A stretch of DNA of 64,000 bases, from positions 1,760,001 to 1,824,000 of the forward strand of contig CM000151.3 of assembly GCA_000004695.1 (NCBI GenBank), read 5' to 3'. Shown here piece by piece: positions 3,800-28,252 of this stretch. The DNA comes from Dictyostelium discoideum. Lineage: Eukaryota. The position numbers were made by a program, and so were the translations under genes. Every line of letters begins with the position of its first letter. Position 1 is the stretch's first letter. The notes beneath the pieces were generated by a model. The model was not told where the DNA came from. It ran no database searches and saw only the letters and a program-made list of their open reading frames with translations.

Positions 3800-4628
3800 T
3801 TTTTTTCCTAAAAAGGAAATTTGATTATAAATTTAGAAAATACTGAATGTGTTTTAAAAAATTCCACTTTTTTTTCATTTTAATGGGTTCTGTGGAAAAA
3901 AAATATAAATATCTTGATTTTAAAAAAAAAAAAAAAAAAAATGAAAATTTTTAAAAAAAAAAAAAAAAATAAAAAGAAAGTTCTATATTTAGGGACAAAG
4001 TATCTAAATAATTGAGATTGTTTTGTGCACTGTTAGAAATCAATCAAAAAAATTTTAATTTTAAATTATTTTTTTTTTTTTTTTTTTTTATTTTATTTTT
4101 TTTTTCATTTAAAAAATTAAAACAAAATAATTTATAATTTTTTTAATTAAATTTGAACAACCATATGGCGTCTCAATGTAAATATCCCTAATAATAATAC
4201 ATTAATTAAAAATATATTTTGCATTATTTTTATTTTTTTTCTCTTTTCATTTTATTATTTTATTTTATTTTTTTTTTTTAAAAATATTATATTTTTTTTT
4301 TTTTAAGAAAAACACAACACACACGAACGATAAGTTTTTCAGCTTTATTTTTATTTTTATTTTTTTTTTTATTTTTTAATGTGGGTGTGCTAAATTAAAT
4401 TTCAATAATTTAATCAAACCCATGAATAGAATTAATTTTATATTCTCTCCTGTGCAAAATATTTTTTAACCCCATATGTTAAGTTTTTTATTAAAAATTA
4501 ACAATAAAAAAAAATCACATAATACTAAAAAAAAAACTGTATTTGTGAATTCGTGTATGTGTGGTAATGTGTGTTTATTCTTTGCAAATTAAACCAATAA
4601 TGTATATATTATTTTTTTTTAAAAAAAA

Positions 4629-4666
<38 letters not shown>

Positions 4667-4726
4667 AAAAACAAAAAAAAAATATTCATAAGCAAATGAT
4701 GAAAATTTAAACACTAACTATTTCAA

Positions 4727-4757
<31 letters not shown>

Positions 4758-5606
4758 AAAAAGCTATAGTCATTTTTATCTTCATTTATTATATTCATCT
4801 ATCATTGGTCAATTAATTTGATAAAGGTAAAAAATTTTTTTTTCATTTTTTTTATTTTTTTTTTTTATTTTTTTTTTTTTTTGAGATTCCCAAAAAAAAA
4901 AAAAAGAAAAAAAAACAATTATTTTGGAAAATAAAAAAAAAAAAAAAAAAAAAAAACCATTGCTTTAATTTTAATTAATTTTTTATTTTAAAATTTTATT
5001 TTAAAGTAATGGGACAATAAAATGGTAAAAAATAAACATATGAAAATAAAAAAAATAAAAAAAAAAAAACAACTTTTTTTTTTTTTTTTTTTTTGGGGGG
5101 AGAAAGATGACCACAACCTTTGCAGTTTTTTTTAACTCTATTTTATTTGTTGTTGTTGTTGGGATAGCTTCATTAAATTAATTCACTTACCCCAATAATG
5201 CTGGTTTTTTTTTTTTTTTTTTTCTTGGATAATTATTTATTTTTTTTTTTTTTTTTTTTTCTAAACACTTTTTTAACCAGCAAAAAAAAAAAAAAATAAC
5301 ATAAAAACCAAAAAATAAATTAATTAATAATAATTAAATATATTGTAAATAAATAAGGTCCTTAAAAAAAAAAACAAAAATAAAAATAAAATAAAATAAA
5401 AAAATAAAAAAAAAAATAAAAAATAAAAAAAAAACAAAAAAAAAAAAAATATTATTTTTCAAGACCAAGCCGGCAAATTCGTGTGATCTTTTCAGCAAAT
5501 ATTTTTTTTTTTTTTTTTTTATTTTTTTTTTAATTTTTTTTTTTTTTTCATCAAACTTTTTATTTTAAACAATTTTAATTTAATCAGTTATATATAAAAT
5601 TTCTAA

Positions 5607-5642
<36 letters not shown>

Positions 5643-5838
5643 ATTTTTTTTTTATTTTTTTTTTTTTTTATTCTGTTTATTTTTCAAATAAAGAATTCAG
5701 GATTAATAGAAACCATAAATCCCCCAACAAACACCGCATTTCTCCAAATATCAAACACCACCATTCCACAAATATTTTTTTTAACACAATCACTATACGT
5801 TCAAATTTTATTTTAAAATTAGTTTTTTAAAATTTTGG

Positions 5839-5885
<47 letters not shown>

Positions 5886-6155
5886 CAATTAATCAAATTT
5901 TATTCTTCGGTCAATTCCTTTTTCATACTTTTTTTTTTTTTTAAAAAAAAAAAAAATTTCTGATCTATTCAATTTTTTTTTCCTCACTCTTCATCAAATT
6001 CAATTGTGATATCATGATATCCATTACAAAAACAAAGTAATTTTTTTTTTTTATTTTTTTTATATTTTTTTTTTAATAATTTTTTAGGATTATTAAAAAA
6101 AAAAAATATCTTTTTCAAATAAAATAGCAAAAAGATAATTATTTTTTTTTTTTTT

Positions 6156-6194
<39 letters not shown>

Positions 6195-6480
6195 CATCAC
6201 ACATAACTATTATTCCAATAATCAAAAAAAAAAAAAAAATTATATATATAGATACAAAATAAAATTTTGTTTTTAAATTACATCACACACACCCAATAAA
6301 TTAATCACTAAAAATTATCAATCAAATAATTCTTTATCAAATTAATTGTTTTTTTTTTTTTATTTTTTTTTTTTTATTTTTTTTATGCGCTATCCAATTT
6401 TTCCAAAATCTCAAATTACTATTTTCCCAAATTTTCCATATTTTTTTTTTTTTTTTTTCAAAAAAAAAAAAAAAAATAAT

Positions 6481-23065: not shown

Positions 23066-24688
23066 ATGGACAGTGAAGAACACATAAATAAAAAACTAAA
23101 GATAGATGATATCAAAGAAGAAAACAATAATAATAAAAAATTACAAAATTATATTTGTAAAAATATTGTAGAATTATTAATTAATTATTTATTAAAAAGT
23201 AAAAAAAAGAGATCAAATTCAAATAATAATAGTTTTGAAAGATTTGAAAAAAAACAATTCATATTATATTTGGATGAAATTATTACTCTTTCTTTAGTAT
23301 CAAAAAAATGGTTTAAAATAATATCAGATTTTATTTCAAATGGTATAATTGAACAGAAAATAATTGATTATTGGTTCAGTGATGAGGGAGATGATGCAAC
23401 AACACTACACAGAGGCGAAGATGCAACAACACTACACAGAGGCGAAGATGCAATGAAATCAAATAAATATTATTCATTAATAAAAATAGATGCAACCACA
23501 ATTGATGATTTTTTCAGTTCTAAATATTATTATATTGAAAACTTTCAAGGAGCTAAATTTAATCCAGTAACAACAACCGATGATGAACCAAAGAAATTCA
23601 TTAATAATAATAATAAGACCTTTAAAAGGATTAAAAACGATGATGAACCAAATAAATTCATTAATAATAATAATAAGACCTTTAAAAGGATTGAAAACGA
23701 TGAAATAAAAATATTATTGCAAATAACAGATAGACTTAATGAGAGTGTAAAAGTTGATTTACTTTATCAATCAATCGATGAAGAGTATTTAATACCAATT
23801 GAAAAAAATGATAATATTATTGTGGAAAATTTAAAATTGGAAGGAGTTGATACGGAATATTCCTCAACATTATCAAATATTTTTAATTTTCAACCAAAAC
23901 ATATAAAATATAATCCAAATGGTGTTTATTGTCAAGATTCATATTTCCATATGGATTATTTAGAATTATTCAATCCAGATAATTTGGAAATTTCTGCTTC
24001 TCCCACTTTGCCACTATCAACCAATAGAACCGAATCTATTAAAATTAATACAACAGATCATGTTGAACCATTTCATTTACATAATTTAGAATCATTTCCA
24101 AATTTAAACTCATAATCAATTCCAATGTTACTTCATGATTTGTTCATTTGTGCCAATAAAGAGGATGCAAATGTATCAGAGAATGGATGTAATTATCATA
24201 ATGATGGATTAACGAAAACTTCAAATATAAAACAAGATTGGGATAAAATGATTTATTCATTAATAAATTGTAAATCATTAAATAATTTAAGTATTTTAAA
24301 TTTTTGTTCATATGGTTTTGATTGTATTGAAAAAATTAATAATTTGATTACTAATGATGATGATGATGAACCACTCTCAAATGGACTACAAAAATTATTA
24401 TCTTGTAAAAATTTTCAATATTTAAAATTAATAGGATTTGATTTTATTAAAGATATTAATAAAGTATTTTCATCATTGGTAAACAGTAATAATGGTTCTT
24501 CAATTAAAACATTAATATTAGAATGTTCTCTACATAAAAAATCATTTGAATATTGTCATGAACTTTCAAATTGTTTATTATCCAATATTTATAATTTAAA
24601 TTTAACATATCTAAAAATTAATTTTGTATTTTCAAATGATGAACATGGTTTAAAAATTTTATCATTTATTTTTGATACTTTAATTCAA

Positions 24689-24719
<31 letters not shown>

Positions 24720-25018
24720 GACAACAATTAAAAGAAAGAAATGAAGAATATGGAAATATCTTTACATTTAATGATAGTAGATTACATCATATTGAATTCA
24801 GTATGTATCTTGAACACTTTGATACTGTTTTTGGTAAAATTAAATCTTTATCAAATGATCAATCAAAAATACCAAATTCATATCCAATTGTAAAAGAAAT
24901 TCATATGTGCATTTTGATGACAGATAAAAAAGAAAAGGTTTTATTAAAAAAAAGAATACAAGACGAATATTATATGTCAAATTTAAATGATCATAGAACT
25001 ATAATCAATATTTTGTAA
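23066..25018 (+). pseudogene. F-box-like paralog A of the 26396..28252 gene, interrupted by an in-frame TAA at 24116-24118 and carrying two internal in-frame tandem duplications (27 bp and 60 bp)
   Basis: ORFs 23066..24115 and 24125..25018 are in the same frame. They are separated only by a TAA where paralog B has TTA (...NLNS*SIPMLLHDLF vs ...NLNSLSIPMLLHDLF). Duplicated units: gatgcaacaacactacacagaggcgaa x2 at about 23391-23444, and a 60-bp unit (DDEP.KFINNNNKTFKRI.N) x2 at about 23575-23700. Both are single copy in paralog B. This could be a true pseudogene/allele or a base-call error. Confidence 0.45.
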
Positions 25019-25179
25019 ATATCCAAAAAAAAAAAAAAAAAAAAAAAAACCATATCCAATTTTCCAATATTATAATATTTAATAATAAAATTAAAATAAC
25101 AATTATTTTTTATTATTTTTTTTGTTTGTTTTTTTTATTTTTTTTAATTACTTTAATTATCATTTTTTAAATTACTAAT

Positions 25180-25214
25180 TGACTTTTAACACAAAAAATA
25201 AAAAAATTTTTCAC
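25180..25214 (+). repeat. Left terminal inverted repeat of the piggyBac-like relic
   Basis: See mobile_element 25180..26216. Confidence 0.6.
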
Positions 25215-26181
25215 ATTTTTTTACACCTTAAAAAATTAAAAAAAAAATTAATAAAAATTCAGATATTTATTTTCGAAAACAAATATTAAAATGAAAGTGT
25301 GTATTTTTTTTTTTCTATTATTTTTATTGAACATTTAACCATTCTATAAATAAAATGACAAAAAAATCAGAAAAAATAAACAAAGAAAGTAATGTTCAAA
25401 AACAATAATTACAAAGGCCCAAATTGATCAAAAAATGATGGATCACAATAGATATTCAGCAGTACATAATGTTTTGGATATGAAAAGTCATAGATTTGAA
25501 GAATATTGTGAATTGTTTATGAACAGTGCATTGAAATATATTAATATTGGTAACGTTCTGAATTGTGATGAAACAATATACGCATATTATGGGAGAGATG
25601 CTACTAAAGATCATATATTGATAAATAATGATAGTAGACCCCATTCAGTCGGAATTGAAGCATATAGTCTAACAACCAAATTGAATATTAGTAATTGTCC
25701 ATATGTAATTAGTTATGGTCCAAGAACAATAGAAAACTGTAAATCTCCTTTCAATTCATTAAAAACCCTTTTTGGATAATTTACATTCAAAATATAATTG
25801 GGAGGATTCAAGGAATAACTTAATCGTATGTTGCGATAGTGCCTTTGCATTAGTAAATAATAAAGAATGTTTAGATAAATTGAAATGTCGTATTTTATCC
25901 TCAACAAGGAAGAGTGGCGTGACTATTCCTCAAGAAATTAAAAGATTCGTCAAACCTTTATTAACCATACATAAAACATTCCTTTTTTATGATGAAAGCA
26001 CAGGACTATTGTACGAGTATACCAAAAATACCGATGGTCATATCAATTGCATTGCAACAAATCTATATTCAAGATTCAAACCCATATGTGGAAATTAATA
26101 ATAATCTAAATATAGAACAATTTGCAACTATTGGAAATTTATTTCGTTTTTCAAAAAAAGAATTAGAACTAATTTTTGTTG

Positions 26182-26216
26182 GTGAAAATTTTTTTTATTT
26201 TTTGTGTTAAAAGTCA
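26182..26216 (-). repeat. Right terminal inverted repeat of the piggyBac-like relic
   Basis: See mobile_element 25180..26216; one A/T difference from the left copy. Confidence 0.6.
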
Positions 26217-26395
26217 GCGAAAAAAATTATAAACCCAGATTTTTAAATTAATTTTTATTTACAAAAAAAAAATTTTTTTTGAAAATTGCACCTCTTTATT
26301 GAAAAAAAAAAAAAAAATAATTGATATTTTTTTTTTTTTTTTTTTTTATGTTGGTAAAATAAAAAAACCACCTTTTTTCAGATAAAGAAATAACT

Positions 26396-28252
26396 ATGGA
26401 CAGTGAAGAACACATAAATAAAAAACTAAAGATAGATGATATGAAAGAAGAATACAATATTAATAATAATAATAAAAAATTACAAAATTATATTTGTAAA
26501 AATATTGTAGAATTATTAATTAATTATTTATTAAAAAGTAAAAAAAAGAGATCAAATTCAAATAACAATAGTTTTGCAAGATTTGAAAAAAAACAATTCA
26601 TATTATATTTGGATGAAATTATTACTCTTTCTTTAGTATCAAAAAAATGGTTTAAAATAATATCAGATTTTATTTCAAATGGTATAATTGAACAGAAAAT
26701 AATTGATTATTGGTTCAGTGATGAGGGTGATGATGTAATAATACTACACAGAGGCGAAGATACAATGAAATCAAATGAATATTCATTAATAAAAATAGAT
26801 GCAACCACAATTGATGATTTTTTCAGTTCTAAATATTATTATATTGAAAGCTTTAAAGGAACTAAATTTAATCCAGTAAAAACAACTGATGATGAACCAA
26901 TTAAATTCATTAATAATAATAAAACCTTTAAAAGGATTGAAAACAATGAAATAAAAATATTATTGCAAATAACAGATAAACTTAATGAGAGTGTAAAAGT
27001 TGATTTATTTCGTCAATCAATTGATGAAGATTTATTAATACCAATTAAAGAAAATGATAATATTATTGTGGAAAATTTAGAATTGGAAGGAATTAATATG
27101 GAATATTCATTATCAAACATTTTTAATTTTCAACCAAAACATATAAAATATGATCCAAATGGTCCTTATTGTCAAGATTCATATTACCATATGGATTATT
27201 CACAATTATTCAATCCAAATAATTTGGAAATTTCTACTCCTCCCACTTTGCCACTATCAACCAATAGAACCGAATCTATTAAAATTGATATATCAGATCA
27301 TGTTGAACCATCTCATTTACATAATTTAGAAGAATCATTTCCAAATTTAAACTCATTATCAATTCCAATGTTACTTCATGATTTATTCATTTGTGCCAAT
27401 GATAAGATTGCAAATCTATCAGAGAATGGATGTGATTATCATTATGGTGAATTAGAGAAAACTTCAAATATAAAACAAGATTGGGATAAAATGATTTATT
27501 CATTAACAAATTGTAAATCATTAAATAATTTAAGTATTTCAAATTTTTGTTCATATGGTTTTGATTGTATTGAAAATAATAATAATAATTTTATTACCAA
27601 TGATGAACCACTCTCAAATGGACTACAAAAATTATTATCTTGTAAAAATATTCAATATTTAAAATTAATAGGATTTGATTTTATTAAAGATATTAATAAA
27701 GTATTTTCATCATTGGTAAACAATTGTAATAATGGTTCTTCAATTAAAACACTAATATTACAATGTGATTGTTCTCACTATAAAAAATCATTTGAATATT
27801 GTCATGAAATTTCAAATTGTTTATTATCCAATATTTATAATTTAAATTTAACATATCTAAAAATTAATTTTGTATTTTCTAATGATGAACATGGTTTAAA
27901 AATTTTATCATTTATTTTTGATACTTTAATTCAAAAACAACAACAACAACAACGACAACAATTAAAAGAAAGAAATGATGAAAATGAAAACATCTTTACA
28001 TTTAATGATAGTAGATTAAATCATATTGAATTCAGCTTGCATCTTAAACACTTTGATACCATTTTTGGTAAAATTAAATCTTTATCAAATGATCAATCAA
28101 AAATACCAAATTCATATCCAATTGTAAAAGAAATTCATATGTGCATTTCGATGACAGATAAAAAAGAAAAAGTTTTATTAAAAAAAAGAATACAAGACGA
28201 ATATTATATGTCAAATTTAAATGATCATAGAACTATAATCAATATTTTGTAA
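26396..28252 (+). CDS. F-box-like lineage-specific protein, 618 aa (intact paralog B)
   Basis: Single ORF whose 5' leader (ttttttcagataaagaaataa[t/c]tATGgacagtgaagaacac) and 3' flank are conserved with the copy at 23066. ...QFILYLDEIITLSLVSKKWFKIISDF matches the F-box C-terminal half (LSLVSKKWFKII). No other known domain recognised. Confidence 0.8.
   Translation: MDSEEHINKKLKIDDMKEEYNINNNNKKLQNYICKNIVELLINYLLKSKKKRSNSNNNSFARFEKKQFILYLDEIITLSLVSKKWFKIISDFISNGIIEQKIIDYWFSDEGDDVIILHRGEDTMKSNEYSLIKIDATTIDDFFSSKYYYIESFKGTKFNPVKTTDDEPIKFINNNKTFKRIENNEIKILLQITDKLNESVKVDLFRQSIDEDLLIPIKENDNIIVENLELEGINMEYSLSNIFNFQPKHIKYDPNGPYCQDSYYHMDYSQLFNPNNLEISTPPTLPLSTNRTESIKIDISDHVEPSHLHNLEESFPNLNSLSIPMLLHDLFICANDKIANLSENGCDYHYGELEKTSNIKQDWDKMIYSLTNCKSLNNLSISNFCSYGFDCIENNNNNFITNDEPLSNGLQKLLSCKNIQYLKLIGFDFIKDINKVFSSLVNNCNNGSSIKTLILQCDCSHYKKSFEYCHEISNCLLSNIYNLNLTYLKINFVFSNDEHGLKILSFIFDTLIQKQQQQQRQQLKERNDENENIFTFNDSRLNHIEFSLHLKHFDTIFGKIKSLSNDQSKIPNSYPIVKEIHMCISMTDKKEKVLLKKRIQDEYYMSNLNDHRTIINIL

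Follow-up and report, generated by a model that had tools for sequence, protein, structure and literature searches.

What is the 1-kb segment, bounded by nearly perfect inverted repeats, that lies between two tandem paralogous genes in the genome of Dictyostelium discoideum? We addressed this question in a window of 64,000 nucleotides (GenBank assembly GCA_000004695.1, contig CM000151.3, positions 1,760,001 to 1,824,000 of the forward strand; positions given below without a locus prefix are those of this window). An initial annotation, made from the sequence alone, had interpreted the segment as an internally deleted, frameshifted, and nonautonomous relic of a piggyBac-superfamily transposon, and the full-length copies and protein family profiles described here bear out the core of this interpretation. 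The segment 25179-26217 is very probably a dead, nonautonomous deletion derivative of a cut-and-paste transposon of ~2.26 kb that resides in the D. discoideum species complex. Its transposase, of the type with three catalytic aspartates (DDD), would be SslA, which belongs to a divergent, dictyostelid-centered branch of the piggyBac superfamily.

Inverted repeats delimit a multicopy element

A repeat search retrieved two inverted arms of 35 nucleotides (25180-25214 and 26182-26216), which are complementary at 34 of 35 positions (97%) and 967 nucleotides apart. The segment from arm to arm spans 1,037 bp; the repeats and the length of 1.04 kb reported in the initial annotation are thus confirmed. 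When up to 3 mismatches were permitted, the 35-mer was found at just 2 sites of the window, as compared to 0.00 expected from 100 shuffles. The two open reading frames (ORFs) described for the segment, 25435..25779 (114 amino acids [aa]) and 25772..26098 (108 aa), exist and lie in adjacent frames. Intact copies of the element end in a terminal inverted repeat (TIR) of 45 bp that begins with CTGAC and is perfect in L005 (45/45) and nearly so in L004 (43/45). Relative to the 35 nucleotides, the true repeat has one additional base per side, namely, a T (25179) and a G (26217). In the window copy, the left repeat is whole and the right repeat is reduced to its outer 36 bp (Table 1).

Copies were sought in D. 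discoideum and D. cf. discoideum assemblies, and 10 further ones were found at unrelated loci (L002 to L007 and L012 to L015); L001 is the window locus in another D. discoideum assembly (99.9% DNA identity). Both the additional copies and the full-length element predicted in the initial annotation thus exist, intact copies being 2,257 to 2,264 bp long. The D. discoideum copies L003 (L003:9821-12082; 2,262 bp) and L004 (L004:3818-6081; 2,264 bp) as well as L005, L006, L007, and L012 (2,257 to 2,259 bp) are bounded by TIRs, both repeats are present in L013 (2,232 bp) and L014 (2,263 bp), and L002 (D. cf. discoideum) and L015 are truncated relics. Some copies are almost identical despite their different loci: L003 and L004, located on two chromosomes, share 99.9% identity, and L005 to L007, at three loci with different neighbors, share 99.9 to 100%. 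Outside the repeats the sequence is unrelated between loci, and homology ends exactly at the 45-bp TIRs. The intact element contains one gene with one short intron, the product of which has 575 to 605 aa, and the gene models inside the elements correspond only to this sslA-type ORF or its fragments.

Some copies have features of their own. L003 and L004 differ by 2 bp, and the N-terminal ~110 codons of L003 are in a frame other than that of the remainder; the frame break is bridged in the annotation by an alternative splice (575 versus 605 aa). One of these two "intact" copies may therefore carry a frameshift. L015 (L015:3046-4090; D. cf. discoideum) is truncated at its 5' side, comprises element positions 1213-2262, and retains the right TIR, with TTA instead of TAA as right flank. 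Next to the L002 relic (L002:11056-14011) there is a gene with a faint match to HTH_Tnp_Tc5, followed by two unannotated ORFs, and remnants of other transposons may be clustered around this relic.

The element encodes SslA

A word-indexed protein search with the window ORF returned two relatives only, at the L001 locus and P0002 (at L002), which first suggested an orphan gene. This possibility was ruled out by an exhaustive HMMER search using a profile of the exact window translations, P0001, and P0002 (query A3). It retrieved P0123, a D. discoideum protein of 575 aa, with an E value of 2.6e-146, the query covering residues 127-342, as well as distant relatives of 410 to 593 aa from Synstelium polycarpum, Tieghemostelium lacteum, and further contigs of ~2 kb. 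Another candidate relative, P0125, was discarded as a false positive (a bacterial repeat protein). The 90% cluster of P0123 contains SslA1 and SslA2, annotated as "suppressor of smlA" in D. discoideum AX4 (SSLA1_DICDI; EAL65215.2, EAL68327.2; GenBank AAM34288.2), and a dozen further D. discoideum and D. cf. discoideum members. Save for N-terminal differences between gene models, the SslA1 entries (P0136, P0144) are 99 to 100% identical to P0123 and P0137, and the products of L003 and L004 are 99 to 100% identical to SslA1. Thus, sslA1 and sslA2 appear from these comparisons to be the gene of a TIR-bounded mobile element. The window copy belongs to the same gene family (97% DNA identity) and differs from the intact SslA1 and SslA2 by three frameshifts and a deficit of ~300 codons.

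In the family alignment, D171/E172, K194, H196, G199, and D260/S261 are invariant, and the third catalytic Asp is found in all full-length members. Further relatives (P0127 to P0134), which come from Logan, ENA, and NCBI contigs of ~2 to 3 kb, include six proteins of 407 to 583 aa and fragments of 153 and 240 aa. The P0130 cluster has 12 members, one of which occurs on 20 contigs, and the contig size is about that of a whole element or transcript. The branch of the piggyBac superfamily that includes SslA appears to extend beyond the dictyostelids sampled.

SslA belongs to a divergent branch of the piggyBac superfamily

The assignment to this superfamily rests on profiles, intermediates, and predicted structure, since no similarity to piggyBac proteins is detectable in the window ORF itself. 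(i) The relatives P0126 (27.1 bits) and P0127 (38.7 bits) pass the gathering score of PF13843 (22.4). (ii) When the family alignment of 13 sequences (A4) was used as a profile, a single significant match emerged among 177,635 Protein Data Bank (PDB) sequences, the piggyBac transposase 6x67 (E = 2.4e-6); the next matches, to an unrelated phosphatase and to the third-Asp motif of piggyBat, are nonsignificant (E = 1.2 to 1.3). (iii) Alignment of A4 with a 33-sequence piggyBac alignment using hhalign (probability of 97.6%, E = 4.3e-12) extends over 340 columns and piggyBac residues 127-491. It pairs D171, D260, and the Asp of YNLVDITD with D268, D346, and D447 of piggyBac, and the KPH..G motif of the window with KPSKYG. 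The family thus possesses a DDD triad equivalent to D268/D346/D447, the first two residues of which are kept in the window copy. (iv) The AlphaFold2 model of P0123 has a mean pLDDT (predicted local distance difference test) of 69, with 75 to 92 in the core, and a pTM (predicted template modeling score) of 0.62. A Foldseek search of the PDB with this model retrieved 6x67_C (E = 1e-6, 505 columns) and piggyBat 9c0f_C (E = 1.9e-5), followed by Tn5 transposases, and the model is predicted to contain an RNase-H-like core and an insertion domain as in 6x67. Taken together, these data place the SslA protein in the piggyBac superfamily; the element, however, is not a canonical piggyBac. An alternative pairing, of NIEQ in the window with the third-Asp motif LDQ of piggyBac, proved to be wrong; the corresponding motif, YNLVDITDK, lies in the deleted C-terminal part.

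The SslA family shares with piggyBac of Trichoplusia ni (6x67), piggyBat (9c0f), and PF13843 an N-terminal helical region, an RNase-H-like DDD core split by an insertion domain, and the collinear motifs M.R.RF/Y, DE...G, KP..G, DN/S.F, and Y..Y..VD..D, and both are encoded by single-gene, TIR-bounded cut-and-paste elements of ~2.3 to 2.5 kb. There are also clear differences. Sequence identity is ~13%, and SslA lies below Pfam detection. The flanks of the sslA element point to a duplicated TAA (3 bp), whereas TTAA is near-universal in piggyBac; its TIRs have 45 bp and begin with CTGAC, as compared to 12 to 19 bp beginning with CCC; and SslA proteins have ~145 additional residues at the position of the insertion domain. 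A 2017 survey of 157 piggyBac-like elements described TTAA targets and TIRs of 12 to 19 bp as general, with Entamoeba invadens as the only amoebozoan and without Dictyostelium. The TIR length is a descriptive and not a strictly defining feature. The initial annotation had considered a C-terminal Cys-rich domain to be missing from the window copy, whereas the whole family is devoid of one: the alignment ends at piggyBac residue ~491, and the last ~50 residues of the SslA family are not Cys-rich. Some accepted piggyBac-derived proteins do not have such a domain either, and it is not a decisive criterion.

The element is polymorphic in presence and mostly flanked by TAA

To compare orthologous loci, we used as anchor an E2 ubiquitin-conjugating gene that is separated from the L005 insertion by 187 bp. 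At the corresponding locus of three further assemblies (L008, L010, and L011), the E2 gene is directly followed by the next gene, and the 2,257-bp L005 element is absent. Read in the orientation of sslA, the empty junction is TTTTTTTAATGT and the filled one is TTTTTTTAA-[CTGAC...GTCAG]-CAATGT. The empty alleles are pre-insertion alleles and not excision products.

Flanks were read with the element taken as Y-TGAC...GTCA-G, a choice of ends that is based on the perfect repeat (45/45) and the L005 empty site. Eight copies had both flanks. TAA is present on either side in five of them (L004, L006, L007, L012, and L013), and two differ by one mismatch (L003, TTA/TAA; L005, TAA/CAA). Six of the eight right flanks are TAA, for which the chance probability is ~3e-7, given that TAA accounts for 4.7% of window positions. 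Models of 4 bp (TTAA, GTAA), 2 bp (AA), and 3 bp (TAA) were tried on all flanks, and TAA fits best; at the single empty site, a 2-bp AA duplication would, strictly, still be admissible. A 3-bp TAA target duplication is therefore suggested by the flanking sequences; it is well supported by statistics and not yet proven.

Each TIR contains an internal TTAA (25186-25189 and 26207-26210; TGACTT-TTAA-CAC), seven bases inside the TGAC end, that is conserved in every copy. It is notable for a relative of piggyBac but probably a coincidence of AT-rich DNA. A reading in which this TTAA is the actual target duplication and TGACTT a palindromic target was considered and rejected, since TGACTT/AAGTCA is the same at every end and the sequences outside differ.

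The window copy is an independently decayed relic

The window copy is 97.2 to 97.4% identical to L003 and L004 over ~1,035 shared bp (2.6 to 2.8% substitutions) and has suffered two deletions, of 511 bp and 707 bp, with both junctions in short direct repeats. Lost in the first were the final part of exon 1, the intron, and SslA residues ~28-125; lost in the second were residues ~378-575, the 3' untranslated region, and 9 bp on the inner side of the right TIR. The third catalytic Asp, reported as missing in the initial annotation, lies in this second block. The N terminus had been described as missing as well, which needs correction: the coding remnant exceeds the two ORFs, begins with the start codon and 13 N-terminal codons (MTKKSEKINKESN) at 25355, and retains the first ~27 codons with a 1-bp deletion, and a third frame piece (26076-26189) carries the protein on to the right repeat. 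Overall, residues ~1-27 and ~126-377 are kept, and ~300 SslA codons are lacking.

Alignment to L003, L004, and L005 placed the first of three frameshifts, a 1-bp deletion, in a T-run at 25395-25396. The second is an insertion of one base (T5 at 25769-25773 versus T4 in the other copies) that closes piece 1, and the third is the loss of two bases (AT) at ~26075 that closes piece 2. Once the latter 2 bp are restored, the frame of piece 3 is continuous and its register is identical to that of P0123; the three substitutions in ELEL by which piece 3 differs from L002 are all synonymous. Pairwise alignment with L002 revealed that the frame-breaking indels are private to each copy. When they are undone, window and L002 have 251 codons in common in a single frame, with 23 synonymous versus 17 nonsynonymous codon differences, which indicates that purifying selection acted on the sslA-type gene before the decay of each copy. 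The L002 relic underwent other microhomology-mediated deletions; since their sites differ, the deletions in the two copies are independent. A common right breakpoint, which would imply that a deleted form had transposed, was rejected because L002 follows the full-length sequence for 4 to 5 bases further.

The window copy cannot encode a transposase. Having kept both termini, it might still be mobilized in trans. In other respects it is an unremarkable dead copy of a transposon, for which no function is evident. The individual parts are listed in Table 1; the region between the left TIR and exon 1 differs from L003/L004 by 7 bp in an A-run.

Table 1. Parts of the sslA-type element copy and its flanks in the window
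Feature	Position	Strand	Remarks
Left flanking TAA, position of the target-site duplication	25176..25178	.	TAA at 8/10 left ends; the L005 empty site has a single TAA
Left TIR, full 45 bp (TTGACTTTTAACACAAAAAATAAAAAAATTTTTCACATTTTTTTA)	25179..25223	+	35-bp core present here; 45-bp extent from intact copies
5' untranslated/promoter region of the element	25224..25354	+	Collinear with positions ~46-180 of L003/L004, ~97% identity
Exon 1 remnant (MTKKSEKINKESN...IDQKM)	25355..25437	+	Matches P0123 residues 1-28
Deletion junction 1, microhomology AAAAATG	25431-25437	+	Element positions ~258-768 lost; exon 1 remnant ends here
Transposase core piece 1 (SslA residues ~126-237)	25435..25770	+	Predicted first catalytic Asp (CDET), KPH..G motif
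Transposase core piece 2 (SslA residues ~238-338)	25772..26074	+	Predicted second catalytic Asp (CCDSAF)
Transposase piece 3 (SNPYVEINNNLNIEQFATIGNLFRFSKKELELIFVGE; SslA residues ~340-377)	26076..26189	+	Runs into the right TIR
Deletion junction 2, microhomology GTGAAA	26182..26187	+	Element positions ~1530-2236 lost
Right TIR, outer 36 bp kept	26182..26217	-	Repeat search and comparison with intact copies
Right flank CGA in place of the expected TAA	26218..26220	.	TAA at 6/8 right flanks

Weighing the evidence for an SslA-driven transposon

According to the proposed mechanism, the SslA transposase would bind the TIRs and excise the element, which would integrate at TAA and duplicate those 3 bp. 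The window copy would have inserted into the spacer that separates the tandem paralogs and subsequently decayed at this site, by two microhomology-mediated deletions and three frameshifts.

A number of observations speak against this mechanism or against the superfamily assignment. (i) Neither the window ORFs nor their joined translation matched Pfam-A by hmmscan, even at E <= 10, and full-length SslA has no Pfam match either. The initial annotation had proposed hmmscan against PF13843 as the decisive test, and this rule would have wrongly discarded the idea. (ii) Direct comparisons with piggyBac remained at the level of noise. The frameshift-corrected ORF aligned to T. ni piggyBac (sequence identical to PDB 6x67) by BLASTP with a best E value of 1.3 and mutually inconsistent fragments. 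An unfiltered hmmsearch with an 83-sequence piggyBac profile gave at most 3.2 bits for the corrected ORFs versus up to 8.0 for shuffles. By hhalign, two corrected Dictyostelium sequences reached a probability of 1.6% and a score of 22.8 against the piggyBac profile, the maximum in 40 column-shuffled controls being 21.6. A phmmer search of all PDB sequences with the window ORF likewise returned noise only. The low-scoring hhalign alignment is collinear over 182 columns and pairs exactly the ordered motifs highlighted in the initial annotation; from the window sequence alone, these motifs cannot be told apart from chance, although they are reproduced in the significant family-level profile alignment. 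The piggyBac resemblance of the window ORF is, by itself, a lead and not evidence. (iii) TTAA, which had been expected as target-site duplication, is present on both sides in none of the eight copies with both flanks. The flanks of the window copy are TAA and CGA with no visible duplication; the target duplication of this copy is degenerate, and the copy is old. The only empty site examined yields an imperfect duplication (TAA/CAA) for L005, a copy nearly identical to its sisters. (iv) L005 has a TGT-to-TGA nonsense codon (KPPC*GPFW; L005:5403-5419, element position ~1587) upstream of the third catalytic Asp that is also found in L006, L007, and L012, so at least these four young D. cf. discoideum copies were not moved by their own product. 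It seems that a defective copy was amplified in trans; L003, L004, and L014 have TGT at this site. (v) The literature treats SslA as a host developmental gene, and its transposase activity is predicted only. According to Glöckner et al. 2016 (PMC4931340), sslA1 is developmentally essential, of "Unknown" function, and conserved in D. discoideum only, and SslA1 regulates the secretion or processing of counting factor. We found nothing in the literature searched that links sslA to a transposase or a mobile element.

The last point would fit a different history, in which sslA is a host gene domesticated from piggyBac, the window segment is a pseudogene that arose by segmental or dispersed duplication, and the repeats are features of the gene flanks. 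The status of sslA1 as an essential counting-factor regulator, the low copy number (~2 intact copies per D. discoideum genome), and the lack of a Cys-rich domain, which serves in piggyBac for binding of the transposon ends, are compatible with such a history. Genes of this kind are known: PGBD1-5 and the ciliate PiggyMac/Tpb2 are piggyBac-derived proteins that, like SslA, have names referring to a host phenotype. They are, however, immobile and without TIRs, whereas sslA copies are TIR bounded, multicopy, and polymorphic in presence. Homology that stops exactly at the 45-bp TIRs at 10 unrelated loci, 99.9 to 100% identity between copies at different loci, recurrent TAA at both flanks, an insertion nested in another transposase gene, and an invariant catalytic triad all argue against domestication. 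The L005 insertion, found in one assembly and precisely absent from three, largely refutes it, and we consider it very unlikely. Even less credit is due to the notion that the inverted repeat and the ORFs arose by chance in AT-rich intergenic DNA. The region is indeed 88% A+T and full of low-complexity inverted matches, and the window ORF has no database family match; but the two 35-mers, with none expected, form a precise inverted pair, 10 other loci have the same ends and the same interior, and the ORF matches a 575-aa protein with the E value given above, by which this explanation is refuted.

A more serious competitor, although still an improbable one, is that the element is mobile but moved by another enzyme, for example, a PIF/Harbinger transposase, with SslA as a passenger or a disused transposase. 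PIF/Harbinger elements have a 3-bp TAA/TTA (TWA) target-site duplication, and a TWA-type duplication is what the flanks of the sslA element suggest (TAA/TAA in 5/8, with TTA at some ends), which is a hallmark of that group and not of piggyBac. D. cf. discoideum, a member of the same species complex, has a Harbinger-type DDE_Tnp_4 gene, and the nonsense codon of L005, L006, L007, and L012 implies mobilization in trans. The L014 allele, without this codon and in the same species complex, would nevertheless be a sufficient source in trans. Moreover, the product of the sole gene between the TIRs is a member of the piggyBac superfamily, has an invariant DDD triad, and was formerly under purifying selection, and distant relatives are found on contigs of ~2 kb, the size of a single-gene element. 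The TIRs have no similarity to any Harbinger end among the loci compared, and Pfam detected no DDE_Tnp_4 similarity in P0123 or its relatives. Unlike PIF/Harbinger elements, the sslA element has a single ORF without a second Myb-like gene, and its best matches in sequence and fold are to piggyBac. Transposition by SslA itself thus continues to be the explanation that we favor.

The Harbinger-type gene was encountered at L014 (L014:3001-6373; D. cf. discoideum, GCA_054859235.1, JBTAPI010000077.1), where an sslA-type element occupies positions 4111-6373 inside it. The fused gene model, P0143, matches PF13359 (DDE_Tnp_4; E = 8e-19) and, weakly, HTH_Tnp_4 at residues 53-239. The DDE_Tnp_4 match belongs to the other element, the insertion target of the sslA element. 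This locus suggests that the D. discoideum complex harbors a PIF/Harbinger element and that the insertion is a nested one.

With the DNA transposons described for Dictyostelium (DDT-A/B/S, Tdd-4/5, and thug-S/T), the sslA element has in common the host, the class II mode, and the inverted ends, and thug-S has been described to contain an intron, as does the sslA element. DDT elements are Tc1/mariner-like. The sslA element differs from these in that SslA is neither Tc1/mariner-like nor integrase-like, and in its handful of copies per genome; Tdd-4/5 encode an integrase-like transposase (PMC2836005). Earlier cataloging under another name (considered for thug by description only) is argued against by the handful of copies and by the annotation of sslA as an ordinary gene. 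A 2026 preprint on D. giganteum refers to piggyBac as unreported in D. discoideum.

The insertion probably postdates the flanking gene duplication

The paralogs on either side of the element (23066-25018 and 26396-28252) share 94.9% identity. Their common noncoding flanks comprise ~45 bp upstream of the ATG and ~65 to 120 bp downstream of the stop codon, and the element is found in a unique spacer, with ~40 to 95 bp of spacer to its left and ~135 bp to its right. The initial annotation had proposed that the element marks or mediated the duplication, a proposal that is not sustained by these data. Unequal crossing-over between two copies would leave a second TIR copy flanking the gene array, and none was detected in the window; furthermore, identity between the paralogs (94.9%) is lower than that between the relic and live elements (97.3%). 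The simplest reading is an insertion into an existing spacer after the gene duplication.

The "F-box-like" label given to the paralogs could not be substantiated, since the 618-aa paralog has no F-box or other Pfam match at E <= 0.1. Its 90% protein cluster contains D. discoideum entries only. Paralog 1 has an in-frame TAA at 24113-24115, where paralog 2 has TTA, and is thereby divided into two ORFs (349 and 297 aa). Unless it has an unusual intron, paralog 1 is probably a pseudogene.

Implications for sslA and for the piggyBac superfamily

The interest of this locus lies in the family that was reached through the window copy and not in the copy itself. The search also holds a methodological lesson: hmmscan against Pfam gave a false negative, and the kinship was exposed only by an exhaustive search through intermediates. 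The genes sslA1 and sslA2, which have been used as an example of lineage-specific innovation in the control of aggregate size (PMC4931340), would be reassigned as the transposase gene of a mobile element. Such a reassignment bears on the reading of the sslA mutant phenotype and on the "species-restricted" distribution of the gene.

It is conceivable, with a chance that we would place somewhat below even, that SslA1 and SslA2 are the transposases of a live piggyBac-superfamily transposon with a 3-bp TAA stagger, 45-bp ends, and no Cys-rich end-binding domain, and that the smlA-suppressor phenotype results from the disruption or the activity of a transposase. The trait that is most conserved in the superfamily, joining to TTAA with a 4-bp stagger, would then have changed in this lineage. 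If this is true, an enzyme that uses a 3-bp TAA and dispenses with a Cys-rich region would serve as a natural experiment on how target and stagger are determined in an enzyme family that is widely used in genome engineering.

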